Of a stretch of 43,770 bases of DNA, positions 12,231 to 34,924 are shown in pieces. The position numbers were made by a program, and so were the translations under genes. The notes below the pieces were generated by a model, which did not search any database, was not told the DNA's origin, and worked only from the letters and a program-made list of their open reading frames with translations. Origin of the DNA: Chiloscyllium plagiosum (Eukaryota); contig NC_057759.1 of assembly GCF_004010195.1 (NCBI RefSeq), forward strand, positions 3,566,397 through 3,610,166. Direction: 5' to 3'. How positions within the stretch are numbered: the first letter of the stretch is position 1; every line of letters starts with the position of its first letter.

Positions 12231-12234
12231 TACA

Positions 12235-13080
12235 TTGATTCTATAAATAATTAGGAGTTGGGTGTTAAGGACATAATCTCTAAATTGCAGTTGACACTAA
12301 CTCAGGGAGAGGAGTGAATTGTGAGGAGGATGCTGAGTGACTTCACAGGGAAATTGACAAGTTGGCCAAATGGGCAGAAATCTGGCAGATGAATTCCATT
12401 GCAGACAAATGAAATGAAATGCATTTTGGTAACAGAAACACAGAACAACAATACAGGGTCAATGGTACATCTTTGAGGGGAGCACTGGAACATAGGGACC
12501 TCCGAGTTCATGTGTATCATTCTCTGAAGGTGGCCAGACAAGCTGAAACTGTTGTGAAGAAGGTTTATCGGATCCTTGCGGTTATAAATAAAGGCATTGA
12601 GTATAAAACTGAGGAACTGATGCTATACCCCTACAAATCATTGGTCAGACCACATTTGTGTTCAGTTCTATTTAAGGAAGGATCTTCAAGCTCTGGAGAG
12701 GGTCCATTGGAGATTTACTAAAATGATAACAGGAATGAAGGATTTTACATACAAGGAAGGATTAGTGACATCAGGCTTCTTCTCCTTGGAGCAGAGAAGA
12801 CTAAGAGGAGGACCTTATAGAGGTATTCAAAATTATGAAGAATTTTGACAGGGCAAAGAAGAATATTTTGTTACCATTACTTGGTATGTTAGTAACTAGG
12901 GGGTCACAATTTCAACACTGTCAGTAAGAAAGCTAGGAGTGACATGAAGAAAAATGTCTTTGCTCAGAGTTGTTAGGAGTTTGGATTGTGCAGCCTGGGA
13001 TCGTGGTGGAGATAGATTCCATATGAGGTATGATAATAAAGCTGGATGTGTGTTTTAAGTGATGAAGTTGGAGGGCAATG
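12235..13080 (+). mobile_element. CR1 RT C-terminal fragment, decayed
   Basis: Reads MHFGNRN...LYPYKSLVRPHL. Confidence 0.85.
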
Positions 13081-13503
13081 AAGATAGGGCGGATGAATGA
13101 TCCTGTCTTGAATTATTTCCAGCTCACCACAATTTAAATAAAAGATGTGCAGAGTACATTCAAACCATTGTCTAGTCTGCCTCGACCCATTCACCAGGAA
13201 ATCAAATGGATGCTCAAGTTAGGAAAGGACACCATAAAATCTCAAATCTCTGCCATCAACAGTTAGATTGTGCTACAGTGATATAAATTGACCCACTGAG
13301 ACTTCTGGGAGAGACCATAATTCAGATGGTTTCTCAAAACAAGTCCACCTTTGGAACTGCCATCTTGTTGAGTGAGTTGAGACAAAGCCTAGGAAGGCGC
13401 AGAAATGTGACATTGCTATGCCTTGGCCTCCTTATGTACTGGAAGATAGATTTGCTGTTGACCGATTTATGAAGCTTCGCAGGCTTTCTTCTGTGCTGTC
13501 TCA

Positions 13504-13630
13504 CTATGTCCGTAGAAGGTTGGCATAAACGTTTCCCTCTTAGTCTTGATCTGGTTCCTCATCCCTCCTGTATCTGTGTGCCTCAGGTGGCGTATGTGAT
13601 GCAGGGTGGTTGCTGTTCCGCTCGGTCAGC
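13504..13630 (-). pseudogene. Terminal coding exon with ITIM-like ITYAT(L) and NVYANL motifs, disrupted
   Basis: Acceptor TTCTTGTTGATCTGTTTTCAG. Phase-0 reading ADRAEQQPPCITYAT* (13583-85). A shifted frame gives DEEPDQD*EGNVYANLLRT* (stop 13504-06). Confidence 0.65.
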
Positions 13631-13654
13631 CTGAAAACAGATCAACAAGAAAAC

Positions 13655-14015
13655 ATATAAGATGATCAAAGGATTGGACACTCTGGCGGCAGGCAACATG
13701 TTTCCGCTGCGGGGTGAGTGCCGAAACAGAGGACACAGCTTAAAAATACGGGGTAGACCATTTAGGACAGAGATGAGGAGAAACATCTTCACCCAGAGAG
13801 TGGTGGCTGTGTGGAATGCTCTGCCCCAGAGGGCAGTGGAGGCACAGTCTCTGGATTCATTTAAGAAAGAGTTGGATAGAGCTCTCCAGGATAGTGGAAT
13901 CAAGGGTTATGGAGATAAGGCAGGAACAGGATACTGATTAAGGATGATCAGCCATGATCATATTGAATGGTGGTGCAGGCTCGAAGAGCAGAATGGCCTA
14001 CTCCTGCACCTATTG
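13655..14015 (+). mobile_element. CR1 3' end
   Basis: Reads RGHSLKIRGRPFRTEMRRNIFTQRVVAVWNALP; same subfamily as 9590-9960. Confidence 0.9.
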
Positions 14016-14029
14016 TAGTAGGAGCAGGA

Positions 14030-14915
14030 CCAAAATTGGTGGCATTTTGGACAGAGGAGAAGGTTTTCTAAGAGGACAATGGAAATTTGATCAACTGGGC
14101 CAGTGGGTCAGGGAATGGCTGATGAAGTTTAATTTAGATAAATGCGAGGTGTTGTATTTTGGTCAGGCAAACCAGGGCAGGACCTATACTGTTAATAGTA
14201 CAAGTTTGAGGAGTGTTTCTGAACAAACAAACCTAGGGGTGCAGAAAGACAGTTCCTTAAATGTGGCATTGCAGCAAGACACTGTAGTGAAGTAAGTATT
14301 TGGCACGCTTCCCTTCATTGGTCACAGCATTGACGACAGAAGTTGGGGCATCATTGTTGCAGCTGTACAGGATGTTGGTGAGGGCACTTTTAGAATACTG
14401 CGTGCAGTTCGGTCAACCTGCTGTAGAAAGGATGTTGTTAAGCTAGAAAGGTTACAGAAAAGGTTTACAAAGATGTTACCAAGATTGCAGGGTTTGAGTT
14501 ATAAGGAGAAGCTTATAACTCAATGGCCTTCTCCTGTTCCCCTGGAGCGTTGGAGTCTGAGGGGTGACCATAGGCAGGTTATAAAATCACGAGGGGCACA
14601 GAAAAGGTAAATAGGAATGGTCTTTTACCCAGGGTAGGGGTGTCCAAAGCTCGTGGGCATAGGTTTAAGGTGAGAGGGGAAAGATTAAAACAGGAGCTGA
14701 GAGGCAAATCTATCCCACAGAAGGCAGTGTGTATATGGAATGAGCTGCCAGAGGAAGTGGTAGAGGCAGGTAAAATTACACTTAAAAGACATTTGGAAAG
14801 GTACATGGATAAGGAAGGATTAGAGATATGGGCCAAATGCAGTTGAGTTTGGGAAACCAGGTCTGCATGGGCGAGTTGGACTGAAGGGCCTGTTTCTGTG
14901 CTGCATGACTCTATG
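14030..14915 (+). mobile_element. CR1 RT C-terminus and 3' UTR
   Basis: Reads TKIGG...WLMKFNLDKCEVL...RGHRFKVRG. Confidence 0.85.
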
Positions 14916-15046
14916 AAAACGGATGAGAAGAACAAACTTTGCCTCAAATACAAACAGTGTACAGGAGGAGCTGTGAAAATCTGGGGTCATTTTACAGACC
15001 AGTTTCTCTTGGCAAAGCACATGACTAGAACAAGCCTAAAACTGAC

Positions 15047-15120
15047 CTTAACAAATGTTATTTCTCTGTACTCTGAACAGGACGTGGCCATCTCTGCCAA
15101 GGTGGGAAGTGGTTCCAATT
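15047..15120 (-). pseudogene. Cytoplasmic exon (74 nt, phase 1-0) with ITIM-like SEYREI
   Basis: CATTTCAG|AATTGG...GTTAAG|GTCAGT. Reads LEPLPTLAEMATSCSEYREITFVK, and its exit phase fits the terminal exon. The pyrimidine tract is weak. Confidence 0.5.
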
Positions 15121-15239
15121 CTGAAATGTCCTTAAACCAATCGACTTGCTCAGCCAGAGGCAGTGAAGAATTTGCAAAGGGTTAGGAGTCAAGAAGACCA
15201 GGTAAGGACGGCAGATTTCATTCCCTTAAGGACAATCAC

Positions 15240-15490
15240 AGACAGGAACAGGAGAAGGCCATTCAGCCCCTCAAGCCTGCTCAGCTATTCAATCACATCA
15301 TGGCTGATGCCCGATTCCTCACGCTCACTTTCCTGCACTGAACATGTAATCCGCAATGCCCTGACTGATCAAGAATCTATCTATCCCAGCCTTAAACCTA
15401 TTCACTGTCCCCACACACAGCTCTCTGTTGCAAGGAATTCCAAAGACTCTCAACCTCAGATAAGAAATTCCTCCTCACCTCAGTCTTCAA
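15240..15490 (-). mobile_element. CR1 3' end, decayed
   Basis: Minus reading KLKTEVRRNFLS..LWNSL. Confidence 0.65.
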
Positions 15491-15749
15491 TTTTGAACCA
15501 GATGGTTGTTTGTTCCTGACAACAGTCATTATTAGAGTCTTAACTCCAGATCTGTTTTTGTTTAAAATCAAATTCCAAATCCACCACCTGCCACAGCAAA
15601 ATTCAAAATCACATCTGCAGGGCATACCCTGGGGAGCTGAAAACAGGATTTTGCTTCCCCATTATTTCAGAAACTCAAAGTGAATCTCTTCAAAATTGAT
15701 ATCAGAATAAATTGCCTCACACCATTGAGTTAAACATTGATGTCCACAG

Positions 15750-16610
15750 AATCCATATACAAGGAAGTGTACCGACAACTGAACAACCAGGAACACTACA
15801 GGCAACTACCAGCTGATCCGACCAAAGAACACACCCGAGAATTAAACACACTGATCAAAACTTTGGATCCAGTCCTTCGCGCCCTCATCCCACGTACCTC
15901 TCGTGTAGGCGACTTCTACTGCCTTCCAAAGGTACACAAAGCCAACACACCGAGACGTCCCATCGTGTCAGGCAATGGGACCCTATGTGAGAATCTCTCT
16001 GGCTATGTGGAAGGCATCTTGAAACCTATTGTACAGGGGATCTCCAGCTTCTGTCGCGACACTACGGATTTCTTACAGAAACTCAGCACCCATGGACCAG
16101 TTGAACGGGGAATATTCCTCGTCATAATGGACGTTTCCGCACTCTACACCAGCATCCCCCACAAGGATGGCATCGCAGCAACAGTCTCAGTACTCAACAC
16201 CAACAACTGCCAGTCTCCAAACACCATCCTACAACTCATCAGCTTTATCCTCGATCATATCGTCTTCACCTTTGACAACCAATTCTTCATCCAGACTCAC
16301 GGAACAGCCATGGGGATCAACTTTGCACCCCAATATGCCAAAACTTTTATGCACAGGCTCGAGAACAGCCATGGGATCAACTTTGCACCCCAATATGCCA
16401 AAACTTTTATGCACAGGCTCGAACAAGATTTCTTCTCTATGCAGGATCTCCAACCGACATTGTACACCAGGTACATTGATGACATTTTCTTCCTCTGGAC
16501 CCATGGCAAGGAGTCACTGATAAAACTACACAGTGACATCAACAAGTTTCATCCCACCATCAAACTCACCATGGACTACTCTCGACTGTCTGTCTCATTC
16601 TTGGACACGG
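15750..16610 (+). mobile_element. Penelope-like reverse transcriptase fragment (open frame within ORF 15737-16699)
   Basis: PLE RT motifs YCLPKVHK, RPIVS, MDVSALYTSI, QTHGTAMG and RYIDDIF. Internal 60-nt tandem duplication. Confidence 0.9.
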
Positions 16611-16659
16611 ACAGACACAGGTACACACAGACACCCACACATACCCTTATAGACACTCA

Positions 16660-16826
16660 GGAGAAAGTGAGGACTGCAGATGCTGGAGTTCAGAGCTGAA
16701 AATATGTTGCTGGAAAAGCGCAGCAGGTCAGGCAGCATCCAAGGAACAGGAGAATCGACGTTTCGGGCATAAGCCCTTCTTCAGGAATCCTGAAGAAGGG
16801 CTTATGCCCGAAACGTCGATTCTCCT
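16660..16826. mobile_element. Palindromic PLE-associated repeat (family B)
   Basis: Perfect inverted arms at 16748-16785 and 16789-16826 around AAT. Confidence 0.85.
16784..16823 (+). ncRNA. Minimal type I hammerhead ribozyme (family B), mirrored on minus strand
   Basis: GGAAUC-CUGAAGA-A-GGGC/UUAU/GCCC-GAAA-CG-UC-GAUUCU. Core intact, 6-bp stem I, predicted cleavage after C16817. Confidence 0.75.
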
Positions 16827-17758
16827 CATTTGTCCTAGCAAGTACAAGATGAGAAACTTTGGAAACCTGTCTCTTTTTTTTCCCAGCAATGTTCAAATTA
16901 AAAAATATCAATGATAAATTAATAATAGCACTGTGCTGATCTGACAGCTCACTTAAAAGACCACAGTGCAAACTCCACTCCTCTGCTGTTAATCCTTGTA
17001 ATAATCAGGGCAGGGACAAACACTATGCCATTCTCCACCTAGAAATTCCCATCAGACACTGGTGGAACACAAACATTGAACCGATTCCTCAGCATAAGTA
17101 GGATAGGGCGATTCAACTTTAGATGCCTTCAAGCTGTCACTAATCTGGTCCTCTGCAAGTCCTCATAACTGCGAATGATGTATGATAGAAGGAGACAGGG
17201 TCAAAAAGAAATATGTTAACAGGCTGATCCAGCAAAGAAAGCCCTATTCATGTTTCATGAGGTTGCCTGGTGTGATGACAGATTTAATAGACAGGAATAT
17301 TCAATCGGTTTTAATCACACTCTGCCCAGTCTCACATATCTCGGATTTAGTTAAAACTCTCAACATACTTAACATTACCAATAACATTTTTGGACTAAAC
17401 AAGGCCCTATTTTGAATTGCCCTAAAGTTTCCAAAATGCAAAACTAAACACCAAACATACCTGTTTACTAAAAGAAAATAAAAGCCTCATTCCCCATGTA
17501 TGACTCATGGGCAGTTGGTGGACGTGTTTCGCAACGAGGCTTGAAAAGCGTTTAATTAGCACCAAGAGAACCCAGGATTTGATCGCTCACTTGCTCCTCT
17601 TTAATCCTGCTTCCCTTTCCTGTGTGATCCTGTATCCACTGCCAAACCCCGTCACTCCTAGCCCACTCTGTCCATACTTATCCCACAACTCATGTTAGCA
17701 TTTTGGCAGAGATGTTACACGTGGGTGAAGCTGGCTGAGTCTGCCTCTTCTGAGTTAC

Positions 17759-17865
17759 CTGGAACCCCGAACTTTAGCCAAATCCCTGCGGGAGCAAAAC
17801 GTACACATCTGAATCCTGGACAACTGCAACTTGCGGCTGTGAAGTTCCACTGCTTTCGCCAGTCC
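17759..17865 (-). pseudogene. Cytoplasmic exon (107 nt) with in-frame stop
   Basis: CTTTTATTTCAG|GGACTGG...CCAG|GTAACT. Phase-1 reading TGESSGTSQPQVAVVQDSDVYVLLPQGFG* (TAA at 17774-17776). Confidence 0.55.
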
Positions 17866-18264
17866 CTGAAATAAAAGTTGGGAATTAATTCTTTTCTTAA
17901 AATGCATTCAGTTCACTATAAATCGAGTTATTTTTAGCACAGTGTTACTAATGTACAGACCAAATTGTGATACTCACTTGGTTTAAACTATATATAACTC
18001 AACAGAATAAAACCTTGCTTCATGTGTTTCCAATCAGGCCTGACCCCGATTTCTGACTCTTTGAGTGTGTTCATGTGAAATTCAGTCAATGATACACACA
18101 CCCGTCTATAACTAAACTGCAGCCATCTAAACACATGCACAATCAAAACACACTGACCAGCCTGAATGCAGAGGAGAAAAGGCAGCGATGGCCTCGGATG
18201 TAGCATTAAGAGCCTCTCACTACACTGCCATCTACGGGACTGTGAAGCATACAATTCAAACTTG

Positions 18265-18702
18265 GTTAAAAATCACACAACACCAGGTTATAGTCCTACA
18301 GGTTTAATTGGAAGCACACTAGCTTTCGGAGCGACGTTCCTTCATCAGGTGATTGTGGAGGGCTCGATCGTAACACAGAATTTATAGCAAACGTTTGCAG
18401 TGTGATGTAACTGAAATTATACATTGAAGAATTGGTTGTCTGTTAAGCCTTTCATCTGTTAGAATACAGTGATAGTTTCACTTCTTTCATGAAAGATCTG
18501 TATTCTAACAGATGAAAGGCTTAACAGACAATCAATTCTTCAATGTATAATTTCAGTTACATCACACTGCAAATTTTTGCTATAAATTCTGTGTTACGAT
18601 CGAGCCCTCCACAATCACCTGATGAAGGAGCGTCACTCCGAAAGCTAGTGTGCTTCCAATTAAACCTGTTGGACTATAACCTGGTGTTGTGTGATTTTTA
18701 AC
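18265..18702. mobile_element. Fold-back PLE terminal repeat (family C), ~205-bp inverted arms
   Basis: 18265-18469 is a near-perfect reverse complement of 18498-18702. Confidence 0.9.
18616..18650 (+). ncRNA. Minimal type I hammerhead ribozyme (family C), mirrored on minus strand ~18317-18352
   Basis: CAC-CUGAUGA-A-GGAG/CGUCA/CUCC-GAAA-GC-UA-GUG. Palindromic AGCU stem III, predicted cleavage after A18647. Confidence 0.75.
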
Positions 18703-18859
18703 AGAATCCATATAGTGTGTAAAGAGAGCATTCAGCCCATCCCATCTGTCCCAAGCCAGTGAAGAGGATCCCACCCAGACCCCAACCCTACTCCTGTAAC
18801 TATGCAGTAACCATGGCCAATCCCCCTCAGCTGTACATGGAAGCTGGCATTTCAGCCAA

Positions 18860-19147
18860 TCGAGTCCATATACTGACCCTCTGAATGTCATCCCACTCCG
18901 ACCCACCACCCTCTCTAATCCCTGTAACCCTGCATTTACCATGGCTAATCCTCCTAGCCTGCATAACTCTCACTATTAAACTGCACATCTTTGGACTGTG
19001 GGAGGAAACCGGAGCACCCGGAGAAAACTCACGCAGAGAAGGGGAGAACATGCAAACTCCCAATAGACAAGTCGCCCAAGGCTGGAATTGCTCCTGAGTC
19101 CCTGGTGCTGAGGCAGCAATGCCAACCACTGAGCCACTGTGCCACCC
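18860..19147 (-). mobile_element. HE1-type SINE, diverged
   Basis: Homology to 11931-12230 on the reverse strand. Confidence 0.85.
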
Positions 19148-19169
19148 AATGATTTTACCACTGGCCATG

Positions 19170-19390
19170 TAGGGGTTGGTTAGCTCAGTTGATTCTACAG
19201 TTGGCTTACAATGTATAGTCAGGCTGACAGCTTGCGGTTCAATTGCTGCTCTGGTTGAGATTGCTGTGAATGATCATTCCCTGTGCCTTCGATGTGGTGA
19301 CCCTCAGGTTAAACCATAAACAGTTGTTGCTTTTTCTCTCTCTTTCTCCCCCACACCTCTCTCTCTCTCTCTCTCTCATGAGACAATGGT
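19170..19390 (+). mobile_element. Second tRNA-derived SINE family, diverged
   Basis: TAGCTCAGTTG A box, GGTTCAATT B box and GGTGACCCTCAGGTTAAACC core shared with 27885-28075. Confidence 0.6.
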
Positions 19391-19473
19391 GAACTTACAT
19401 TAACCGCCTGGTAAAAACATAACTTTGCTGATTAAAAATTAACTGCTGTCTTTTTCACTGCAATATAACTTAC

Positions 19474-19505
19474 GTGATTCTTTCCTGCTGCACCATGAGA
19501 GGGAC
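19474..19505 (-). pseudogene. Cytoplasmic micro-exon (32 nt)
   Basis: GTCTTTTCTTTCATTTACAG|GTCCCTCTC...AATCAC|GTAAGT. Strong splice sites in a short non-repeat island. Confidence 0.6.
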
Positions 19506-19544
19506 CTGTAAATGAAAGAAAAGACATTTTACCAACAGTACGTA

Positions 19545-22500
19545 TAGAATTTAGAAACGTACAGCACAGAACAGGCTCTTTGGCCCACGATGTTGTGCCA
19601 AGATTTAATCCTAATGTAAAATACAGTAACTTAACCTACAGACCCCTCAACTCACTGCTATCCATGTGCATGTCTAGCAGTCGCTTAAATGTCCTCAGTG
19701 ACTCTGCTTCCACCGTCACAGCTGGCAATGCATTCCATGCATTCACAACTCTCCGCATAAAGAACCTACCTCTGACGTGTCCTTTATACCTTCCTCCTAA
19801 TATCTTCAAACAATGACTTCTCGTACCAGTCAATCTGCCCTGGGGAAAAGTCTCTGGCTATTGACTCTATCTATTCCTCTCATTATTTTGTACACCTCGT
19901 TCGGGTCTCCTCTCTTCCGAGAGAAAAGTCCAAGCTTATTCAACCTTTCTTCATAAGGCAAGCCCTCCAGTCCGGGCAGCATCCTGGTGAACCTTCTTTG
20001 CACGCTCTCCAAAGTCTCTGCATCTTTCCTATAGTAAGGCGACCAGAACTGGACACAATATTCCAAGTGTGGTCTCACCAGGGACTTGTAGAGCTGCAGC
20101 AAAACCTCGCGGCTCTTAAACTCGATCCCCCTGTTAATGAAAGCCAAAACACCATATGCTTTCTTAATAACCCTATCCACTTGGGTGGCAACTTTGAGGG
20201 ATCTATGCACTTGCATACCCAGATCCCTGTGTTCCTCCACACTGCCAAGAATCCTGTCTTTAATCCTATATTCAGCAAAGCATCACTTTGCATTTATCCA
20301 GTTTGAACTCCATCTGCCATTTCTCAGCCCAGCTCTGCGCTGCAGCCTACAGTAGCCTCTATAACCATCGATAACACCTCCAACTTTTGTGTCATCTGCA
20401 AATTTACTAAACCACCCCTCAACCTCCTCATCCAAGTCATTTATAAAAACTACAAAGAGCAGAGGCCCAAGAACAGAGCCTTCAGGGAACCCACTCAACA
20501 CTTAACCTCCAAGCACAATACTTTCCATCTACAACCACACTCTGCCTTCTGTCAGCCAGCCAATTCTGAATCCAGATAGCCAAATCTCCCTGTATCCTAT
20601 ACTTCCTGACTTTATGAATAAACCTACCATGGGGAACCCTATCAAATTCCTTGCTGAAGTCCATATACACCACATCCACTGCTCGACTGTCGTTAACCTG
20701 TCAACTCAATAAGATTTGCGAGGCATGACTTGCCCCTCACAAAGCCATGCTGACTGCCTTTAATCACACTATGCTTTGCCAACTAGTCATAAATCCTATC
20801 CCTCAGAATTCTTTCCAAAACTTTGCTGACCACAGACGCAAGACTGACTGGTCTGTAATTGCCAGGGATTTCCATATTACCCTTCTTGAAAAGAGAAACA
20901 ACATCCGCCTCCTTCCAATCCTCCAGTACGACTTCCATGGAGACTGAGGAGGCAAATATCCTAGCCAGCGGCTTAGCAACCTCCTTTCTCACTTCCCAGA
21001 GCAGCCTAGGATAAATTGGTCTGGCCCTGGGGACTTATCAATCTTAATGTTTTCCAAAATTTCTGGCATATCAACTTCATCAATCTTAATCTGGTCAAGC
21101 ATGTGTCCCAGCTCCTCTAAGTTTTCAATTACAAGAAGTTCCTTTTCCTTGGTGAAAACTGAAGCAAAAAACTAATTTAGTGCTTCACCTAGCTGCTTAG
21201 ACTCCATGCACAAGTTCCCTCCTCTATCCCTGATTGGCCCTGCCTTCTCCCTAATCATTCTCTTATTCATCACATATGAGTAAAATGCCTTTAGGTTCTC
21301 CCTAATCCTTCTTGCCAACCTTTTTCGTGCCCCCTCCTGGCTCTCCTCAGTCCATTTCTGAACTCCTTTCTAGCAAGCCTGTAATCTTCTAAAGCTGTAC
21401 TAGACCCTTGCTTCCTCCACCTTACGTAAGCTGTCTTCTCATCCTTTTGACGAGAAGTTCCTCTGTTCTCGCCATCCAAGGTTCCTTAATCTTATCCCTT
21501 CTTACCTGTCTCAAAGGAACAAATTTGTGCATCACTCGCAACAACTGCTCTTTAAATAGTATCCACATGTCTGCTGTGTCCTTTCTGTGGAACAATTGCT
21601 CCCAGCCTGTATTTCCCAACTCCTGTCTGATAGCGCCATAATTTCCTTTTCCCCAATTAAATATCTTCCCTTGGTAACTACTCCTTTCACTTTCCAAGGC
21701 TATGCTAAATAGGAGTCGGTTGTGATCACTTTCACCGAAGTGCTCTCCCACTATGAGATCTGACAACGTTCCTGGCTCATTGCCGAGCACCAAATCCAAA
21801 ATGGCCTCTCCCCTCGTCTACATCCTGAGTAAGGAAACCCTCCTGAACGCACCTGATAAAAATGGTTCCATCCAAACCATCTGCACTTAGGAGGTTCTAG
21901 TCGATATTGGGAAAGTTGAAATCACCCATAACAACAACCTTGCTACTTTTGCATTTTCCAGAATTTGCCCGCCTATGAGATCTTCAATCTCTCTACTCCT
22001 ATTAGGTGGTTACCAAGGGAAGAAAACCCCCAATGCGGTGGCTGTCCCTTGCTGTTCCTAACTTCCACCCCATACTGACTCAGTAGACAAACATTCTTCA
22101 ATAACCTTCATTTCTGTAGCTGTGATGCACTCTCTGATTAGCAATGCTACACTCCCTCCTCTTTTTCCATCCTCCTTGTTCTTTTTAAATGTTCTAAACC
22201 CTGGAACATCAAGCAACCATTCGTGCCCCTGTGAAACCCATGTCTCCAATTATGACCACAACATCATAGTCCCCAAGTACTGATCCATGATCTAAGTTCA
22301 TCACTCATTATTTCAGATACTCCTTGCATTAAAGAAGACACACTTTAACCGATCCCGTTGTTTCATCACGTGAGAAACCTTCCCGATAGATTCAATATAT
22401 CCTGTCAATATCCCGTCAGCAACTGACCCCCTCTCAGACAAGTGGCTCTGATTCCCACCCCCCTGCCAAACTAGTTTAAACCCTCCCGAATCACACGAGC

Positions 22501-22690
22501 AAATCTCCCACCCAGGATATTTGTGCACCTCCAGTTCAGGTGCAATCCATCCCTCACGTACAGGTCCCACCTTCTCCCCAGAAGGTATCCCAATGGTCTA
22601 GGTATCTGAAGTCCTCCCTCCTGCACCAGCCTCGCAGCCACGTGTTAAGCTGCATTCGCTGACTGTTACTCATCTCACCATCTCGTGGAA
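19545..22690 (-). mobile_element. Long CR1 LINE (ORF1 end, endonuclease, RT, 3' UTR), decayed
   Basis: ORF1 esterase DGLHL-like motif near 22550. Then FNARSI, ETW, GGSVALLI, DLVLGN, PGNYRPVSL, YMDFSK, FADDTKVGG and YKSLVRPHLEYC, in collinear order. Confidence 0.92.
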
Positions 22691-22739
22691 TCTGAATGAA
22701 TTGTGCGGGGATGCACAGGGACATTTACCAGCATATTGC

Positions 22740-23640
22740 CTTGGGGGCAGGAGAGTTTCAATGATTGAGAGAGGTTGGACAGACTGGGGTTGTTGTCCTT
22801 ACAACAGAGTGGATTGAAAGAGAGGGATGTGTAAAATGATGAGGGGTGAAGATAGGGGAGGCAGGAAGAAACTTTCTCCCCTTGACGGAGGTGGGGGGAG
22901 GGGTATAAATTGAAGGTAAGGGCCAGGAGATTGAGGCGATGTGAGGAAAATCTTGTTCACACAGAGGGTGGTGGGGAATCTGGAAGTCACTGCCTGTAAG
23001 GGTGGGAGAGGCAGAAACCGTCATCACACTGATTTAGATGTGCACTCGTGACGCCAAGGCTATGGGGCCAAATACTGGGGAAATGGGATTAGAGAATATG
23101 AGGTGGTTGTTTCTGACCATTACAGGCTCGATTAGCCTTTTTCTGAGATGCAGACCACTCGGAAACTATGACTATGTATTTTACTTCCAAGATACCATCT
23201 AAAGTGATTTTGTATATTTCATGTTCAGAGATGAGGGGTTTGTCTTCAAAAGAGAGATTGAGCAGTTAAGGCCAATATGCTCTGAAGTTTAGAGGAATGA
23301 GGGGAGTTCCAACTGAGGGATATAGGGTGGTAAAGGAGGTGGGATTGACAAAGGAGACAGAGTGAGGATGTTTCCTCACGTGTGACAATTTAGAACGAGA
23401 GGGTCATTGTTTCAGGAGAAGGGGGTGGGGATTGAAAAGAAAGATGTTGAGAAATAGCTTCGGAATATCTGGGAATTCATCCCCCAGTGTGTGTGTGTGT
23501 GTGTGGCGGAGGGGGGGGGGGCGATGTCAGGACACTGGCAATATGTCTATCCCTTCCTTCAATTTATTCAATCAGTGAGGGGTTAAAGGGAGCAGGGGCA
23601 GGAAATTGGAGTTGAGGCTGGGATGAGAACAGTCACAGCC
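22740..23640 (+). mobile_element. Two decayed CR1 3' fragments
   Basis: CR1 ORF2 C-terminal similarity at 22740-23160 and 23225-23640. Confidence 0.65.
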
Positions 23641-23814
23641 ATAAGAAACAAGGGAAGCAGGCTCCCGTGGGTATCCTAGCCCATATGTTGTATTGGTCGT
23701 CCAGCTGCCTGCACATTTTTTAGTGTGGGTGCCTCATAGCACATGCTCAGAAAGCTCTGAATCTGAGGGCCTAAACTGTGTGATGCATCACAGTCTATTC
23801 GTCACTTAATAGCC

Positions 23815-24660
23815 AAGACCATAAGACAGAGCAGCCATTTGGCCCATCATGTCTGCTCCACCATTCTGTCATGGCTGATATGTTTGTTAACCCCATTCTC
23901 CTGCCTTCTCTCTGTAAAGGTCGATCCTCCTACTGGTCAAGAACCTATTTATCTCTGTCCTAAAGACATATTGACAGCCGTCTGCAGTAATGAGTTCCAT
24001 AGATTCCCCACTGTCTGGCTGAAGAAATTCCTCCTCATCTCAATTCTAGAGTTCCCTTCACTCTGAGGCTGTGCCTTCGAGTCTTCGTCTTTCCTACTCA
24101 TGGAAACATCTTCTCCATGTCCACTCTATCCGCGCCTCTCAGTATTCTCCAAGTTTCAATCAGATTCTTCCTCACCCTTCTAAACTCCATTGAGTCGAGA
24201 CTCAGAGACCACAACTTCTCCTCATGTGATAAGGTCTTCATCCCTGGCAGTTTTCTTGTAAACCCCCACTGGACCCCTTCCAAGTTCAGCACGTCCTTCC
24301 TCAGATAGGGGGCCCAAAACTGCTCACAATGTTCCAAACGTGGTCTGACCAGAGCGTTATACAGCTTCAGCAGTACATTCTTCCTCTTGTATTCTACACC
24401 TCCCAAAATGAATGCTGACATTATATTTGCCTTCCTAACTGCCAGCTGAACCTGCCTGTTAACCTAAACAGAATCCTGAGGTTGGACTCCCAAGTCCCTT
24501 CATGTTTAAGATTTCCGAAACCTTTCCCCATTTTGGAAACATTCGCTGTCTCTATTTTTCCTACTATAGTACATAACTTCCCATACTGTATTCCATCAGC
24601 CATTTCATTGCCCACTCTCCAAGCCTGTCAAATTCTTCTGCAGCCTCACCCCTCCCTCAA
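23815..24660 (-). mobile_element. CR1 RT C-terminus and 3' end
   Basis: Reads LYNALVRPRLEHCEQFWAPYLRKD. Confidence 0.88.
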
Positions 24661-25137
24661 CACTATGATCAAAGAAACACTCAAGACAATGAAATGGCAA
24701 TTCTTCTCATGTGAATGATGCTAGACCCAAAGTGAATGGCTCCTTGCCCCAAAGACCAAGGCCAGAGGGACCACTCTCAAACAATAAGCTGTTGTACTGA
24801 GGCAATCAACAGATTGATGTCCTAGGGTCTAAAATTTAGGCATCACCTCAAAACAAGATGTCAGATAAAGCAATTAGCCATCGGTGTAACGTTTCTTCTT
24901 CCAATTCACATTGCCCTGTTGTTAATTTATTGCCCAACTCATCCCTAGTTGTTCCCTTGAGAAGGTAGATATGAGCTACTTTCTTAAACTGCTGCAGTCC
25001 ATATGCTGTAGATAGACACACATTGGATGGAAAGCTGTCTTCAACAGGAAACAGTCAGTCCCCAGGTGGCAAACAATCTGCCCCTGCTGAGATTTTCCAA
25101 CGATTTCTGTGTTTCCTTTTATTTCTTACACTGAGTG

Positions 25138-25750
25138 CCTGAAGAAAGCTAATGAAATGTTGGCCTTTATATCGAGAGGATGAGAGTACAAGGATGCAGA
25201 AGGGATGCTGCAGTTATACAAAACCCTGGTTAGACCCCACTTGGAGCAGATCTGGGCACCACACCTGAGGAAGGATAGATTGGCCTGGGAGGGAGTACAG
25301 CGTGAGTTTACAAGAATGATACCTAGGCTTCAGGGGTTAAGTTATGTGGAGAGATTACACAAATTAAGCGTGTTCTGTCCAGAATTTACATGATTCAGGG
25401 ATGATCTGATTGAAGATATTAATAGGAAAAGACAGGGTGGATAAATTGAAAGTGTTTCGACTGTTTGGGGATCCTAGAAATAGGGAGGGCATAGCCGGAC
25501 AGTTAAGACCAGACTGTTCAGGAGAGATGTTAGGAAGTACTACTACGCATACTGGCTGGGGTAGGTTTGGAACTCTCTTCCACAAACAGCAGGCATTGCT
25601 GGATCAGTTGTTAGTTTTAAATCTTGAGAGATAAGTTTTTTTGTTTTTAAGGGGATAAGGACCAAAGGCAGGTCTATGGAGTCAGGTCACAGATCAGCCA
25701 TTGAATGGTGGAACAGGCTCAAGGGCCTTCTCCATGGCCTCCTCCTGCTC
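25138..25750 (+). mobile_element. CR1 3' fragment
   Basis: Reads LQLYKTLVRPHLEQIWAPHLRKD. Confidence 0.85.
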
Positions 25751-26004
25751 CTTTATACAAATATTCCACATTTATAAATCATGGAACCACCTGCAGTTCC
25801 AAAGTGGCAATCCCACACAATTAGTGATTTCAAACAGAAACTGAAAGTCCAAATATTTTATTTTCACACATTCCATCCTCTGGGTGAAACAATCCTCAAA
25901 TCACTCTCAAAACCTCTTACCCTTCACTTTAAAATGATATCCTCCTCGTTACTAACCCTTCGACTAACAGTTGCTTCCTGTCCTCCCTGTCCATGTCCCT
26001 CATA

Positions 26005-26715
26005 ATAGAGTCATAGAGTCACAGAGCAAGGAATCAGACCCTTCGGTCCAACTAGTCCATGCAGTTCATAATCTCAAACTAAACAATCCAACTTGTTTGC
26101 ACTTGGCCCTTATCTCTCCAACCTTTCCTATTCTTGTACTAATCTAAATGTCTTTTAAACATTGTAACTGACCCCGTAACTGCCACTTTCTCTGAAAGTT
26201 CAATCCACACGTGAACCACTCTCAATCAAAAAAGGTTACCCATCATGTCATTTTCAAAAATGTTTCTCTTCTCAACTGAAAAATATGTTGCCTGGTCTTG
26301 AAGTCCCCCACCCTAGGGAAAAGACACCTGCCATTCACCTCATCTATGCCCATCATGGTTTCATAAACCTCTATACCCCTCAAACTTCTACTCTCCAGTG
26401 AAAATTGTCCCAGTCCATCCAGCCTCTCCTTATAACTCAAACTCTCCATTTCAAACAAAATTCTGATATATCTTTTCTGAACCCTCTCAGCTGAATAATG
26501 TCCTTCCTCTAACAGAGCAACCAGAACTGGACACAATAAACCAGAACAGGCTTCACCAGTGTCCTGTACAGCCACAACAGGGTGTCCGAACTTCAACACT
26601 CAATGGGCTGAGCAATGAAGGCAAGTGTTCTAAACACCTTCTCAAACACAATGTGACACAAACTCCAAAGAATTATGGACCTGAACTCATCAGGCACTCT
26701 GCTCGACAACACTAC
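26005..26715 (-). mobile_element. CR1 3' fragment
   Basis: CR1 3' UTR and an ERVQKR-containing ORF2 C-terminus on the minus strand. Confidence 0.8.
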
Positions 26716-26908
26716 CAATCTTACACACCTCTGTCATGTCCCCCTCACCCATCAACCTTCTCTGTTGTAAAGGAAACAACGCAAACTTCCCTCCAACACT
26801 TCCAGGAAGACATTTGTTTTGCGGACCTTCCCAATCAGATAAATACCAGCATGAACGCTGACCAATAAGTGACGGTGTAGGATCAGCAGCTCACAGAATC
26901 ATACTCAC

Positions 26909-26999
26909 CGTTCAATCGGCTTGACCCGATCTGTGTATTCGAAATTTCTTGCAGGTCTGTCCTCACTCGCGCTCTCAGCTTGATCTTCCATCACCTCCC
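26909..26999 (-). pseudogene. Cytoplasmic exon (91 nt)
   Basis: TTTCATTCCAG|GGGAGG...GAACG|GTGAGT. Phase-1 reading EVMEDQAESASEDRPARNFEYTDRVKPIE. Confidence 0.65.
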
Positions 27000-27169
27000 C
27001 TGGAATGAAATATTTCCAGATCATTACCCAATCAAGTTCCAATCCTGCTCATGACAACAATTTACTGCTGTTTGTGTACATAAACCCCTGGCAGCGAGGT
27101 CACTGAGCTAAGGTCCCAAGGAATGACCTCCTGGAATTGTCCGGAATGTGGCTCAGAACTTGTACGTTC

Positions 27170-27670
27170 ATTGAATCATAAAATTTTACTGTACAGAAGG
27201 AGGCCACTCATGTCTGTACCAGCTCCTGAAAGAGCTACCCAGCTAGTCCCACCCTCCAGCCCTATCTCCATTGCCCTCTACTATCATCCCTTTCAAATTT
27301 ATATCCAGCTCTCTTTTCAAACCTCCTTTGGAATCCACCTCCAACATTCTCCCAAGCAGCACATTCCAAACCCAACAACTCAAATAAGTTTCTCCTTATC
27401 TCACTCTCTCACTGACAATCTTGAAATTCTGACCAGCCAGTTACTAATAGACCAATGAGTGGGAAATTCTGCTTTCCTGTCAGAATTGTTCAAACTTTCA
27501 ACATCTCAATAAGGTCAACATGTCATCTTCTCTGCTTGAAAGAGAATAAGCTCAATCTCTTGAACCTTTTCCGGAATCTAAAATCCCTCATCGTTGTGAT
27601 CATCCTTGTAAATCTCCTTCACACTGTCTCCAGGGTTTGAACATCCTTCCTTAAGTAAGGTGTCCAGAAC
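27170..27670 (-). mobile_element. Old CR1 3' fragment
   Basis: Degenerate similarity to CR1 3' ends elsewhere in the window. Confidence 0.6.
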
Positions 27671-27884
27671 AGAATAAAAACAGCCTGGGTAATAGAAGGC
27701 CAACTCCCTTTGTCAAATGTATTTCTAAATTCAGCTACTATTGCCTGTGAAGGTAAGGTGTTACACAGATACAAAGAAATACCCAATAGATCAAAGGCTT
27801 ATCTCCACTATGATCTAATATTCTCTATTCAGTGCTTGTGCTGTCACTGGAATTAATTTCTTTTCTGCTCTCTGCTTTGTGTTG

Positions 27885-28075
27885 TGTTCGTTAGCTCAGT
27901 TGGCTGGATGGCTGGTTTTAAATGTGGAGTAAAATCAACATCGTGGGTTTGAATCTCTCACTGACTGAGGTTACCATGAAGGACTGTCCTCCTCCGCTCA
28001 TCCCCTTATGAGAGGCATGGTAACCCTCAGGTTGAACCACCATCTAGCAGTTATCACTCTCTTCCCTCTCTCTCT
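27885..28075 (+). mobile_element. tRNA-derived SINE (same family as 19170-19390)
   Basis: A box TAGCTCAGTTGG, B box GGTTTGAATC and shared core. Confidence 0.6.
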
Positions 28076-28449
28076 GACACTCCAGCTGAGGTCCACAGGT
28101 GTCTTTTACAACTTCATCACCACCTCCTTGTTCTTGGACTCTATGCCCCTATTAATAAAGCCGAGGATGCTGTGTGTTTTATTCACTGCTCTCGCCCCTG
28201 TTACGCCGCCTTCACTGATCTGTGGATATATACCCCCAAATTCCTCTGCTCTTGCACCCCGTTTAGAATTTTACCCCCTACTTTGTATTGTCTTTTTGTT
28301 TCTTTCAACCAACAACCTTCACCAAATTTGTGTTGAATCACTTTTGTCTTTATTTTCCAATGTTCATGAATTAAAACCTATTTTGTTAAATCAAACTTGA
28401 TTTTCTCCCTCCTAGTAGTTTTGCTAAATAATAATATAACTCCATGAGA

Positions 28450-28747
28450 ACATGGACCATGAGAACCTTTTTCCACGTATGGAGAAGGGGGAATAACTTT
28501 AAATTAAGGGGTGGTAGGTATAGGACAGATGTTAGGGGTAGATTCTTTACTCAGCGAGTCGTGAGTTCATGGAATGCCCTGCCAGCAGCAGTGGTGGACT
28601 CTCCCTCTTTATGGGCATTTAAACGGGCATTGGATGGGCATATGGAGGGTAGTGGGCTAGTGTATGTTAAGTGGGCTTGGATCGGCGCAACATCGAGGGC
28701 CAAAGGGCCTGTACTGCCCTGTATTTTTCTATGTTCTATGTTCTATG
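28450..28747 (+). mobile_element. CR1 3' end with (TTCTATG)n tail
   Basis: Reads FKLRGGRYRTDVRGRFFTQRVVSSWNALP, followed by a microsatellite tail. Confidence 0.88.
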
Positions 28748-28749
28748 TC

Positions 28750-29580
28750 CACAAGAACATGCAGGCTAGGATCAGGTTGAGTCCATTTGGTCCATCAGGA
28801 ACCTGCTCCACTATTCCATATGATTGCAGCTGATCCCATCTCAGCCTCAACTCCACTTTCCTGCAAACACTCCCTCTGAGCCATCACTGATTAATAACCT
28901 GTCTGTCTCCTCCTCCAATTTATGCAGTGTGGGGGTTGGGAGGAGTGATCCCACAGATTTACAACCCTGTCCTCATTTGAGAGAATTCATTCCCTCTGTA
29001 TTCAGTCTGCCCAGCCCCTTACCCTCAAATGATAACCTCTTGTTCTATATTCTCCCACATGAGCAAATATCCTCTCTCCAACTCCTTTGTCAATACCCCT
29101 TTTAGCATCTTATAACCCTCAGTTAGATCTCCTCTCTTATAAACCCCAGAGAAACTGCTCAATCTCTCATCTAAGACAAACCCTTCATCTCTGGAAATGA
29201 TTGAGTGAATCTCCTCTGAACTACCTCCAGTATAAACTGCATCTGTCCTCAAGTAAAGAGATCAAAATTGTACCAGTCTCTTCTCATAAGACTAAACTTT
29301 CATCTGGGCAATCAATTCGGTGATCTCCTTTGAACTTCCTCCAATTCAACTACATCCCTCCTCAAGTAATGAGACCAAAATTGTCTGCAGTATTCGGATG
29401 TGGAAACCCCAATCCCTTGTACAGTTGCAGTAACAATTACCTACTTCCATACTCCATTCCTTTCGCAATAAATGTCTTCCTTGTGACCTGCTGTAGCCTG
29501 TGCACTGATATTTTTGAACTTTCTCTCCTATTCAGATGATAAGTTCCCTTTTTTAATTCTTCCAACTGCAATGGATAACC
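28750..29580 (-). mobile_element. Old CR1 fragments
   Basis: Minus reading RGDLTEGYKMLKG; partial internal duplication. Confidence 0.6.
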
Positions 29581-29814
29581 TCACCGCTAATGGGACTGAC
29601 CAACGCTCAGTTCACTGTCTAACAGAAATTGTGAGTGTGTCGTCAATTTGAACTGTTGTGCTTTAGATTTGCAAATTGTCAGACACAACAGTTCATTTGC
29701 TCTAATTTGTCTAACAAATGTAAAGTTGCTGGCTTTGCACCCAGAGTGATTTTTCAGCCCATTCAAATAGTGTTTGAATGCTGTTTGAAGTTGCTAACCA
29801 CCTCACTAATTTAC

Positions 29815-29845
29815 CTGTGCCACCGGGAACTGTTGGAAGAATCAG
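29815..29845 (-). pseudogene. Cytoplasmic micro-exon (31 nt)
   Basis: CTTTCTCTCTTATTTTCCCCAG|CTGATTCTTCC...GGCACAG|GTAAAT. Reads ADSSNSSRWH after the TM exon. Confidence 0.55.
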
Positions 29846-30104
29846 CTGGGGAAAATAAGAGAGAAAGAACATGGGAAATTTTTACTGCAAATATTCAGCT
29901 TCTCCTGCTATCAAATAAATCTGGATTCTTTGACTGATGCGCAAACAACAATAATTCCAATTTTAACCTTTAGTTTATATCTGTGCTGACTATTCCTCTG
30001 AACACTGCACATTACTTTGTATGTCTCCCCAAGTAATTTCGTCTGCTACTTGTTCAGCCTGTCCACACCCTCACAAAGCACTTTTCCAAATAGTGCTTTA
30101 TTTC

Positions 30105-30555
30105 TTTTTTAATTCACTGGTGGGATGTGAAAATCACTGGCTGGGCCGAGAATTTATTATCCATCTCTCGTTGACCCCTTTAGAAGGAGGTAGTGAGCTG
30201 CCTTCTTGAACCACTGCAGTCCCTGTGCCGTAGGTAGACCCACGATATCATTAGAGAGGGAACTACAGGATTTTGACCCAGTGACACTAAATGAGTGGCT
30301 GATATATTTCCAAGTTGGGATGGTGAGTGGCTTAGAGGGAAACTTGCAGGACGTGGTTTTCTCATGTATCTGCTGTGCTTGTCCTTCTAGATGGACCTGG
30401 TTGTGGGTTTGGAAGGTGCTGCCTGAGAATCTTTGGTGAATTTTTGCAGGGCATCTCGTAGCTGCTACTGAGGACAGGTGGTGGATGGAGTGGATGTGGT
30501 GCCAGTCAAGCAGGGGCTGCATTGTCCCTGGACTGTGTTCGGCTTCTCAAGTGTG
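30105..30555 (-). mobile_element. L2-type LINE 3' end, decayed
   Basis: Minus reading HIHSIHH...GLQWFKKAAHYLLLKG resembles L2-clade C-termini and their 3' tail. Confidence 0.6.
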
Positions 30556-30821
30556 GTCTACATGACTGACTGACTGACTGTGTGTGTGCCCATGTGTGTG
30601 CCCATGTGAAACTATGCGTAAGTGTCAATGAGAATATGTCTCTCTCTCTCTCACACACACACAGACATGTACACTTTCATACTCTCACTCAAACGCACTC
30701 ACACACATACTCTCTCATACGCACACCCTCGTACACTATGTGAGCAACATTAGTTTGAAACCTACATCGAGTGCAGATTGGAGAACGATCGCCGGTGTTA
30801 CCTGCTGGAGGTCTCACTCAC

Positions 30822-30944
30822 CTTGTTTCCAATTCCGGAGTTTAATGGGAAGCAATGTGAGGAGAGAAAGGATCAGAAACAGTGGGACAATGAGTACTGC
30901 CATCTCAGTGCTGTGTGCCTGTGCTGGATTCTGAGAGGGATTAC
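30822..30944 (-). pseudogene. Transmembrane exon (open, phase 1-1, 123 nt)
   Basis: TTGACAG|GTAATCCC...AAACAAG|GTGAGT. Encodes GNPSQNPAQAHSTEMAVLIVPLFLILSLLTLLPIKLRNWKQ: a hydrophobic stretch followed by basic residues. Confidence 0.8.
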
Positions 30945-31274
30945 CTGTCAATAACATCATCTCTTCAGCAAATACCAACCCCAGTGTTTCCTGTTCCCTG
31001 TCGCCCTGACCCCCTGCCAACACTCGTGTCTGTAAAATCCCGCCCAAACCCTCAGCATTGCAGTAACATCATTGTTTCTGCGCAGCCTCTCTCATTAATA
31101 ACATCCCACCAATCCAACCCAAACTATTCGATGCTAAACTCAAAAGATCACTCTGCACTCACTCTCTCTCAATTGTCGACTAGAAATTACTGTCTCTCAT
31201 TGTTACGGCTTTCATATATTGAGGCAAAACTTCCCTTGTCCTCCACCTGTCAGCGGAAATGGGGCAATCACAGA

Positions 31275-31885
31275 GAAACATCAAAAATACCATTTGGTGG
31301 AGGCCATTCGGCCCCTCCAAACTGCACCGCCCACATAAAGGGATCATGGCTGATCACCCAACACACAGTCCCCTGTCTCTCTTTAACCCCAAAGAACTCA
31401 GTACAACTCCTTCCTGAACAACATTCAGTGTTCTGGCCCTGACTACTTTCTGTGGCAGAGAATTCTACAGGCGCCCCATTCTCTGCATGAAGATATTTCT
31501 CCCCATCTCAGTCCCACTCCATTTCGTTCTGACTGTTACCCCCTGGTTCTGGACTCTCCGCCCGGTCACCGGAAACACCCTCCCCCATGCTTACTCTGTC
31601 TTGTCCTTGTTCAATTTATAGGTTTCTAGGAGATTCCCCCTTAATTCTTCTAAACTCCAGTGAATATCATCCCAACCATTCCAGTCTCTCTCCATCTGTC
31701 AGTCCTGCCATCCGAGGAATCATTCTGGGAAAACTTTGCTGCACTCCCTCCATAGGCACAATATCATTCCTAAAATAAGGAAACCCCAAACTGCGCGCAG
31801 TTTTCCAGGGTGTGGTCTCACCTTGTCCATTTGTAACGAGACATCCCTGCACTTGGACTTGAATCCTCTCGCTATGGAGGCCTCC
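31275..31885 (-). mobile_element. CR1 3' fragment (intron between Ig and TM exons)
   Basis: Minus reading MEGVQQSFPRMIPRMAGLTDGERLEWLG. Confidence 0.75.
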
Positions 31886-32038
31886 CTTATCTGACGAATT
31901 ACTCTCACTCTCCCTTACCCCCACAGATGCTGCCGACTTGCTGAGCTTCTAAAGCAATCTTTTTAGAGTGTTCATGCCAAGACTTCAGCTGGACCCCAGT
32001 GAAGAACGAGCACAGATCAAATATGAAGAATGAATTAC

Positions 32039-32333
32039 CTGGCTCTGTGAGGTTGATGGAATTCCTGGTCACATTAAATATTGTTCCAACCCCTGTTGAT
32101 CGCAACAAGGTATCTGCCTTGGTGCTGGGACTGAAAGGATTCAATGGTCAGTTTTCAATGGTCTGAGCTAAAGTTGTAATTCCTGCTGGCATTGTTTAAG
32201 GCTTACCTTTGAAAGCACCATTGAAAGTACAGTCCTGTACCTTGACACAGTACACACTCTCAAACAAGATGATTCCCAAGCGGAGCCTCCATTTTATTGA
32301 CTCTGGGGGTGAGGAAAACCCCAGCAACAGGAA
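32039..32333 (-). pseudogene. Membrane-proximal Ig domain exon (FCRL/PECAM-like), disrupted
   Basis: Acceptor TTTGTCTTGTTTTGTTCCAG, donor CAG|GTAATT. Phase-1 reading VPVAGVFLTPRVNKMEAPLGNHLV*ECVLCQGTGLYFQWCFQR*ALNNASRNYNFSSDH*KLTIESFQSQHQGRY[fs]...GVGTIFNVTRNSINLTEP. Stops at 32260-62, 32203-05 and 32155-57. Length of 295 nt is not a multiple of 3. Confidence 0.8.
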
Positions 32334-32559
32334 CTGGAACAAAACAAGACAAAGAGGAAATAAAAGATTGGATGTTGAAATTGTCTTTCTTTTCGCAGAT
32401 GTTATCTTCTATGACAAGATAATAACTGACAGAAAGGAGAAATAAAACAACTGTGATTTTACATCGTCGCAAAGTTTCCATCTGTTGTAAAATCTACACT
32501 TCGACAGATTTGTGTAACTATGGATGGTCAAATGGTACATTATCCAACCATTGCCCTCT

Positions 32560-32905
32560 TGATGTTCAATGGTATTACTGTCACTGTCCCACCCCCCCAC
32601 AGTTTCAACATCCCGGGGGTTACTGTCACTGTCCCCACCCCCACACCACATTCAACATCCTGGGAGTTACCATCACTTTCCAGACCCCCATCCCACTGTC
32701 AACATCCTGGAGGTTACTGTCACAGTCCACCCCCACCCCAACCCCAACACTGTCAACATCCTGGGAGTTACCATCACTGATTCTACCCCCCCCCCATACT
32801 GTCAACATTCTAGGGGTTTCTGTCACTGTCCCCACCCCCACCTACTGTCAACATCCTGGGGTTATCATCACTGTTCCCATCCCTCACCCCACTTTGAACA
32901 TCTTC
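32560..32905. repeat. Minisatellite, ~37-45-bp unit, about 8 degenerate copies
   Basis: Recurrent CTGTCAACATCCTGGG(A/G)GTTAC(C/T)(A/G)TCACTGTCCCCACCCCC unit. Confidence 0.85.
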
Positions 32906-32954
32906 CATGCCAGTCAAAAGCAATCACCTCTCTGTTCTCTAACACCATACTCCC

Positions 32955-34730: not shown

Positions 34731-34924
34731 AAACTCAATAATAATGACAAATACACAGAGACAGAGAGGTGGGAGTGAACAAGAAATCGTGCGGCGGCAT
34801 ATCAAGACCAAAGGCCACTCTCCCGAAGGACGGCTGCCCTGGACTCGAAACGTTGACTCCGCTTTCTCTCTGTCTGTCTCTGGACAGATGCTGCCAGGCC
34901 TGAAGCACAAACAAGGTCCTCGGG

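Follow-up and report, generated by a model that had tools for sequence, protein, structure and literature searches.

What is left of a receptor gene in a stretch of shark DNA where pieces of an immunoglobulin (Ig) domain, a transmembrane (TM) segment and several tyrosine motifs lie on the minus strand, and to which family did the gene belong? The question arises for 43,770 nucleotides of Chiloscyllium plagiosum (NC_057759.1, positions 3,566,397 to 3,610,166; this whole stretch is called the window), in which an earlier note saw a hidden Fc-receptor-like (FCRL) gene remnant with a tail carrying motifs that resemble immunoreceptor tyrosine-based inhibitory motifs (ITIMs). The window very probably holds an unprocessed, 5′-truncated pseudogene in which an Ig4 remnant, Ig5, the TM exon and four of the six tail exons remain from a shark receptor with five Ig domains and a tyrosine-bearing tail. 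Its parent is likely an inhibitory FCRL-like protein of B cells, and a history of the clade is proposed below. The copy in the window is an ordinary pseudogene that yields no receptor, and the working gene is already in databases.

The window copy and its intact parent

The intact parent is a 14-exon, five-Ig receptor gene located 1.07 Mb from the window on the same 8-Mb contig (C50). Its sequence (C50:2502959-2531147; two leader, five Ig, one TM and six cytoplasmic exons) matches exactly, across the 14 coding exons, the RefSeq model P0019, which has the source label Chiloscyllium plagiosum and the name 'PECAM-like'. From 34305 to about 10000 the window follows the 3′ half of this gene in colinear order, with 65-87% identity. 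The colinearity extends through the introns, and the window copy is therefore an unprocessed duplicate. In tblastn, its Ig5 has 62-64% protein identity to carpet-shark RefSeq models, and an open Ig exon of a sister copy, used as a query, retrieves full-length shark proteins labelled FCRL4-like and PECAM-like. The exons of an intact paralog thus map colinearly to the window, which bears out the earlier view of a decayed member of a chondrichthyan FCRL-like family. The receptor parts, and the segments lying between them, are as follows.

34107-34156, minus strand: first 50 bp of the Ig4 exon (tblastn 45-52% identity; DNA breakpoints 34107/34104 against parent 2518249/2518012)
32039-32333, minus strand: Ig5 (membrane-proximal) exon, 295 bp, phase 1, AG/GT intact, 79% to the parent exon
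30822-30923, minus strand: TM exon, 102 bp, open frame, AG/GT intact, about 90% to the parent
29815-29845, minus strand: cytoplasmic exon 1, 31 bp, open, aligned to the parent exon
26909-26999, minus strand: cytoplasmic exon 2 (NFEY; parent NFDYAEI), aligned to the parent exon
24926-25026, minus strand: deletion junctions, cytoplasmic exons 3 (AVYSSV) and 4 (LLYSVV, strict ITIM) gone; parent 2509053-2509790 and 2508322-2508955 unmatched
19474-19505, minus strand: cytoplasmic exon 5, 32 bp, aligned to the parent exon
16827-18491, minus strand: foreign insert holding the DVYVLL segment (17759-17865), no part of the receptor gene; 99% to contigs C36 and C15, absent in the parent
15059-15076, minus strand: SEYREI, intron sequence and no exon, aligned to the parent's last intron
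13501-13630, minus strand: terminal exon (ITYAT, NVYANL), 86.6% to the parent
9989-13500, minus strand: patchy homology (72-80% blocks) to the region downstream of the parent, probably 3′ untranslated region; AATAAA at 11435-11440

The lesions are spread along the whole copy. Only 50 of the 285 bp of Ig4 are kept, with about 236 bp deleted. Read in the frame of the parent, Ig5 contains three stops, and its frame and second Cys are lost through indels of -1, -2 and -5. In cytoplasmic exon 2 the acceptor has moved by one base and 2 bp are deleted 3′ of the Tyr, cytoplasmic exon 1 does not join it in frame, and the terminal exon is damaged by stops and by two 1-bp deletions. One of the parent's two strict ITIMs is thus deleted and the other frameshifted. 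Neither tblastn nor DNA alignment to the parent found a colinear match to the leader and Ig1-3 anywhere in the window, and so the copy is without leader, intact Ig frame and in-frame tail. Pfam returned no Ig match for the read-through Ig fragment of the window and Ig_3 alone (E 0.003, below the cut-off) for the open sister Ig exon; Rfam returned no match at gathering score in the window. A short match in 42179-42650 (minus strand) to the region at 10443-10552 probably represents the 3′ end of the tandem copy that follows upstream.

The earlier note described eight AG/GT-bounded segments, taken here as the Ig and TM exons, 29815-29845, 26909-26999, 19474-19505, 17759-17865, the SEYREI stretch at 15076 and 13501-13630. 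All these segments exist and six of the eight align to parent exons. The DVYVLL segment was rejected as a receptor exon, since the parent is without it and it belongs to DNA that recurs with 99% identity on C36 (1665 bp) and on C15 (1006 bp); SEYREI was rejected because it falls by alignment in the parent's last intron. The five tyrosine strings were all found in minus-strand translations where they had been placed; SEYREI and ITYATL fit the consensus offered for them, but DVYVLL, NFEYTD and NVYANL do not. Across its six frames the window contains 137 instances of the strict form [SIVL]xYxx[IVL], and 24 fall within the minus strand of 13504-30821; such strings are therefore cheap, and DVYVLL and SEYREI are accounted for by chance. 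Within the Ig exon VPVAGVFL is present, but the patterns L.C...G and Q.H.GRY have no literal match (the text reads *ECVLCQG and QHQGRY) and the second Cys is lost. The Ig4 remnant at 34107-34156 and a CpG block at 34540-34950 had been overlooked. The gene is also not hidden, as RefSeq already contains the intact parent, and homologues from ten shark species, under FCRL-like or PECAM-like names, and the intact genes inform about receptor origins better than a dead copy does.

The DVYVLL insert belongs to a larger segment (16827-18702), about 1.4 kb of otherwise unique DNA beside inverted repeat ends, which recurs at 99% on C36 and C15. The repeat ends are presumably Penelope-like, and a reverse-transcriptase fragment beside the insert (RVT_1, E 1.6e-6) lies just under the cut-off. 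Such a segment probably reflects recent transduction by a retroelement, with an exon-like piece carried along.

Sister copies and the CpG-rich block

The window copy is one of many. The Ig5 exon as a query against the genome (G000) gave 40 scored matches among 55 candidates, mostly on C50; the TM exon, the terminal exon and the CpG block gave similar lists, with 42 matches for the block (40 of 101 candidates scored). The cluster showed three intact genes amid dozens of dead copies. Among the sister copies examined, frames are open in 1 of 18 Ig4, 4 of 27 Ig5 and 14 of 21 TM exons, and the receptor parts have drifted 11-15% from each other. Pairwise dN/dS among headless copies, in which the values share history and stand without a significance test, is neutral for the TM exon (1.09, 21 copies), cytoplasmic exon 1 (1.21, 17 copies) and the terminal exon (1.00, 14 copies). 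Two features of these copies have no counterpart in the parent.

34457-35143, no strand assigned: CpG-rich promoter-like block in place of the leader and Ig1-3, core 34540-34950; no parent homology, CpG observed/expected 0.72-0.88
32392-32485, plus strand: insert of about 94 bp, seen as a gap in the parent alignment; AATAAA at 32441-32446 and, near 32459, an antisense poly(A) site in use in sister copies

Homology to the parent begins only near 34305-34417, below the block. A promoter role of the block is likely, judging from its composition and from words which we take to be YY1-like. The block stands before receptor exons in at least 23 copies, 22 on C50 and one on C24; the figure is a floor and not a rate, because most loci were fetched for holding the block. 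The C24 locus (L087-L088, about 7.43-7.45 Mb) shows one headless unit (block, Ig4, tail exons) relocated to another chromosome-scale contig. No block was found in the 10 kb fetched for nine other copies without Ig2/Ig3, seven of which contain N gaps, nor within the stretches fetched for seven copies with Ig2 or Ig3. A 10-nt deletion in Ig4 is common to all 16 Ig4 exons from copies without Ig2/Ig3 and is absent in four of five Ig2/Ig3-bearing copies. It is proposed that an already damaged copy would have lost its leader and Ig1-3, that it would then have been joined to the CpG promoter-like block from another repeated family, and that the headless unit may have multiplied by segmental duplication along the contig in a birth-and-death manner.

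The second issue is the uniformity of the block. Over 34540-34950 (410 bp) 13 copies differ on average by 1.3% (1.0% at non-CpG sites, 0.6% for transversions), whereas five segments taken from its two flanks differ by 11-15% (10-13% and 5-7%, respectively). Lower CpG mutation was rejected as the cause, since the gap persists at non-CpG sites and in transversions. Between copies, the distance in the block shows no correlation with that in Ig4 (rho -0.10, Mantel p 0.71, 9 copies), whereas the distances in Ig5, intron 4 and intron 5 plus TM are correlated with it (rho 0.68-0.78), and two copies 17% apart in Ig4 have three block variants in common. A distant block family, with the same upstream flank and other downstream DNA, differs by 4-5% in 34540-34700 and by 16-24% elsewhere. 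Homogenisation of an active CpG promoter by gene conversion among its copies, together with selection on the 160-bp core, would on balance be the probable explanation; selection alone is rather doubtful, and an assembly effect quite unlikely. Hotspots of meiotic breaks at promoters are described for dogs and birds in PMC11703093. The block may serve as a clean test case for promoter capture and local homogenisation in a duplicated array.

A few further observations concern the block and its relatives. The stretches fetched around distant copies (C4, C7, C50, unplaced contigs) contain no zinc-finger array or other host gene as its source, and two weak Rfam matches in the block, far under gathering score, were discarded. 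A 40-nt likeness to the histone mRNA stem-loop and downstream element lies within it (34665-34701, plus strand; 77.5%, E 0.005 in 11 kb). On C4, 4.3 kb from a distant block copy, there is an exon like the cysteine-rich exon of the TNF-receptor family (L040:9280-9690), which we assume to be osteoprotegerin-like. Near distant block-family sequence on C100645 (L113-L114) open frames resemble endogenous retrovirus gag, protease and envelope pieces. Next to the block in the window, 35144-36216 is an insert that looks LTR-like by eye, is absent from sister copies and carries two inverted halves of 295 bp, separated by an N gap; a fault of the assembly may have produced the inversion.

The antisense signal comes from 49 single-cell reads whose unaligned end is poly(A); it sets in behind 32459, at a distance of 13-14 nt from AATAAA, and the reads stem from about 2% of one single-cell run whose species code was not matched to that of the window. 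With first mates placed on the minus strand, they are compatible with an RNA of the plus strand that runs antisense to the receptor. The letters of sister copies, and not those of the window, appear in most or about half of the reads at seven listed sites (31 of 31 and 44 of 44 reads at two of them). In a search of sequencing runs, none of those listed with a match is registered as RNA, which counts neither for nor against. In reads over 26800-33300 no exon-exon joint was found among the 15 listed (287 more are unlisted); the RNA contigs span introns too, and no statement on sense splicing is therefore made. In all six Ig2/Ig3-bearing copies the alignments end at or before 32407. Two leads deserve to be kept, the uniformity of the promoter-like cap and the antisense site of polyadenylation.

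These data allow other explanations of the array. One is that headless copies form a selected non-coding array, in which the block would be an active, probably bidirectional promoter, the dead receptor DNA would supply the body and the poly(A) end of long antisense RNAs, and these could regulate the intact genes. It is consistent with a block ten times less diverged than its flanks, with a 160-bp core that differs by only 4-5% from that of a distant family, against 16-24% in the flanks, and with the 49 antisense-strand reads ending in poly(A) after AATAAA at a site where the aligned copies have no templated A-run, in a stretch seen only in copies without Ig2/Ig3. However, no read joins the block to the poly(A) site (the reads covered 26800-33300), the reads match sister-copy letters rather than the window copy, no Rfam family is present, and AATAAA is the reverse of a splice-acceptor pyrimidine tract and may be accidental. 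We regard this proposal as unlikely. Its fuller form, in which more than 20 dead copies on a shark microchromosome are capped by a captured CpG promoter, held almost identical through concerted evolution or selection, and yield polyadenylated antisense RNA by which the few intact B-cell receptors of the cluster would be tuned, is more speculative still. It could also be argued that the copies encode a short membrane adaptor without ectodomain, starting at an ATG inside the TM exon, since that exon keeps an open frame and good splice sites in the window as well as in 11 of 21 copies, and the ATG lies upstream of the hydrophobic stretch. Against this stand dN/dS values of 1.09 (TM) and 1.00 (terminal exon), clean terminal exons in only 5 of 14 copies and a clean cytoplasmic exon 2 in 1 of 7, and, in the window, the out-of-frame junction of the first two cytoplasmic exons and the missing LLYSVV exon. 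With dN/dS about 1 and such frame damage, a TM-plus-tail adaptor is therefore extremely improbable. Frameshifts counted in cytoplasmic exon 5 stem from intron padding and were disregarded.

The uniform block and part of the copy number might instead be products of assembly, such as a pasted consensus or haplotigs. The assembly has 101,977 contigs, N gaps lie close to many copies, one block pair is identical over 409 bp, and an unplaced contig scores exactly as one C50 copy. Nevertheless, identical pairs are only 1 of 78 and pairs differing at no more than one site 4 of 78, individual copies have private variants, and the receptor parts, 11-15% apart, are far beyond allelic levels; we consider this very unlikely. 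An unprocessed duplicate of the parent, beheaded and multiplied as described, is the reading retained.

The family of the parent gene

The assignment of the parent is a separate matter. Against the Protein Data Bank (PDB), the parent aligns colinearly over five domains to human FCRL5 (E 2.3e-49), followed by FCRL4 and FcgRI; PECAM1 and CD22 are absent among the best 60 of its 217 matches. Whole-protein BLAST gives 143 bits for turtle FCRL3, 128 for paddlefish, 125 for bilby, 120 for lion, 113 for squirrel and 88 for toad, against 95 and 76 for PECAM1, so that five of the six FCRL models exceed both PECAM1 models and toad lies between them. In a domain tree of 90 of 104 cut domains and 93 columns (14 were left out as near-duplicates or, once, a false cut), whose bootstrap had not settled, shark Ig5 falls together with the final FCRL domain of turtle, toad and paddlefish at 99/89, shark Ig1 sits in a clade by itself, and shark Ig1-4 are unresolved or mixed with PECAM1. 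Phase-1 Ig exons and a signal peptide split across two exons are present in the parent, the latter also in P0179. The tail of P0019 contains the consensus ITIMs LLYSVV and IIYATL, and P0003, P0004 and P0026 have two as well. By analogy with ITIM biology, the parent might bind ligand via its five Ig domains and recruit SHP-type phosphatases to LLYSVV and IIYATL.

A place of the family with PECAM1 rather than FCRL has in its favour the RefSeq name of the parent, the six tail exons with a 30-bp second leader exon, and the grouping of shark Ig2, in a starred set (96/84), with the first domains of FCRL and of teleost PECAM1. It is set against the higher BLAST bits to most FCRL models, the colinear alignment to FCRL5 over five domains and the position of Ig5. 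Neither the tree, the BLAST bits nor the PDB ranks make PECAM1 the best match and a domain-by-domain orthologue, and we strongly doubt this placement.

Several observations weigh against the preferred reading, an FCRL-like parent with decayed headless copies of one origin. Only Ig5 has a starred FCRL-only link, and elsewhere the tree intermingles PECAM1 and FCRL domains. In the parent and P0179 the second leader exon measures 30 bp, not the 21 bp of FCR/FCRL given in the available part of PMC7940838; the family is therefore filed as FCRL-like, not FCRL. dN/dS is below 1 in Ig4 (0.71), Ig5 (0.77), cytoplasmic exon 2 (0.60, 7 copies) and cytoplasmic exon 4 (0.52, 8 copies), and the TM exon is open with AG/GT in 11 of 21 copies. 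An Ig2/Ig3-bearing copy (L070) has a 15-nt gap over the site of the shared Ig4 deletion; in the Ig5 tree one change suffices for the block, but a single headless origin has values of only 66/40. The assembly is rich in N gaps, and mosaic block variants could be assembly errors.

The cluster also contains a histone quintet (H3, H1, H2B, H2A, H4) with stem-loop 3′ ends (L120:2330-9494, L026:320-630), at about 3.548-3.557 Mb of C50, 10-18 kb left of the window; H4 was recognised by eye. Of the genes that could bear on synteny, this quintet alone was noted beside the window. Human FCGR1A also adjoins a histone cluster.

Cartilaginous fish are said to lack FCRL in the available text of a 2014 survey (PMC4016189) and of a 2026 review (PMC13337447), and PMC10751288 makes no mention of FCRL. 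A 2024 single-cell paper (PMC11372145), in the portion available, lists fcrl3 and fcrl5 in bamboo-shark B cells. The accessible part of its Supplementary Data 2 gives LOC122544513, 'PECAM-like', as a B-cell marker (48% of B cells vs 3%) and LOC122544517 as another, both numbered among histone genes. The C50 isoform P0188 carries the second name (LOC122544517). Because of this and because the histone quintet flanks the window, both genes probably belong to the receptor cluster, a link by name and id neighbourhood. A search of papers open without subscription found nothing on elasmobranch Fc receptor-like proteins, chondrichthyan FCRL evolution or bamboo-shark Fc receptor pseudogenes. A formal demonstration of FCRL would shift the family to the base of jawed vertebrates; it would rest on the parent and not on the dead copy. 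RefSeq already names FCRL-like models in many sharks, and the intact genes matter more than the window copy.

Comparison with known receptor systems

The closest relatives are annotated shark genes. The carpet-shark models P0019 and P0005 (C. plagiosum, 'PECAM-like'), P0003 (Stegostoma, 'FCRL4') and P0004 (Hemiscyllium) have Ig5, TM and tail exons in the same order as the window copy, which differs from them in being frameshifted and without leader, Ig1-3 and two tail exons. Further RefSeq homologues are annotated in Heptranchias, Heterodontus, Scyliorhinus, Mustelus, Cetorhinus and Carcharodon, and at 7.06 Mb and 3.85 Mb lie two more annotated genes, with six and seven Ig domains, that belong to a second subfamily.

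The parent resembles human FCRL5, FCRL4 and FcgRI (PDB 9loc, 9mbz, 8din) in its colinear Ig series, split leader, phase-1 Ig exons and ITIM tail, and has the type of membrane-proximal domain in common with the turtle, toad and paddlefish FCRL models (P0078, P0044, P0085). It differs from FCRL in the length of the second leader exon (30 bp, not 21) and in an Ig1 clade of its own. With PECAM1 (teleost P0030, P0174) it shares Ig domains of C2 type, many short tail exons, tyrosine motifs and interleaved tree domains, but PECAM1 has lower whole-protein scores and is outside the best 60 PDB matches.

The array itself resembles the XFL genes of Xenopus, for which the available part of PMC2413239 likewise describes a lineage-specific cluster expansion with gene fragments and a two-exon leader, and where only a fraction of the genes meet the 30/21-bp leader rule. 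The same source gives at least 75 predicted XFL genes, activating and inhibitory, whereas in the shark cluster three intact genes were seen.

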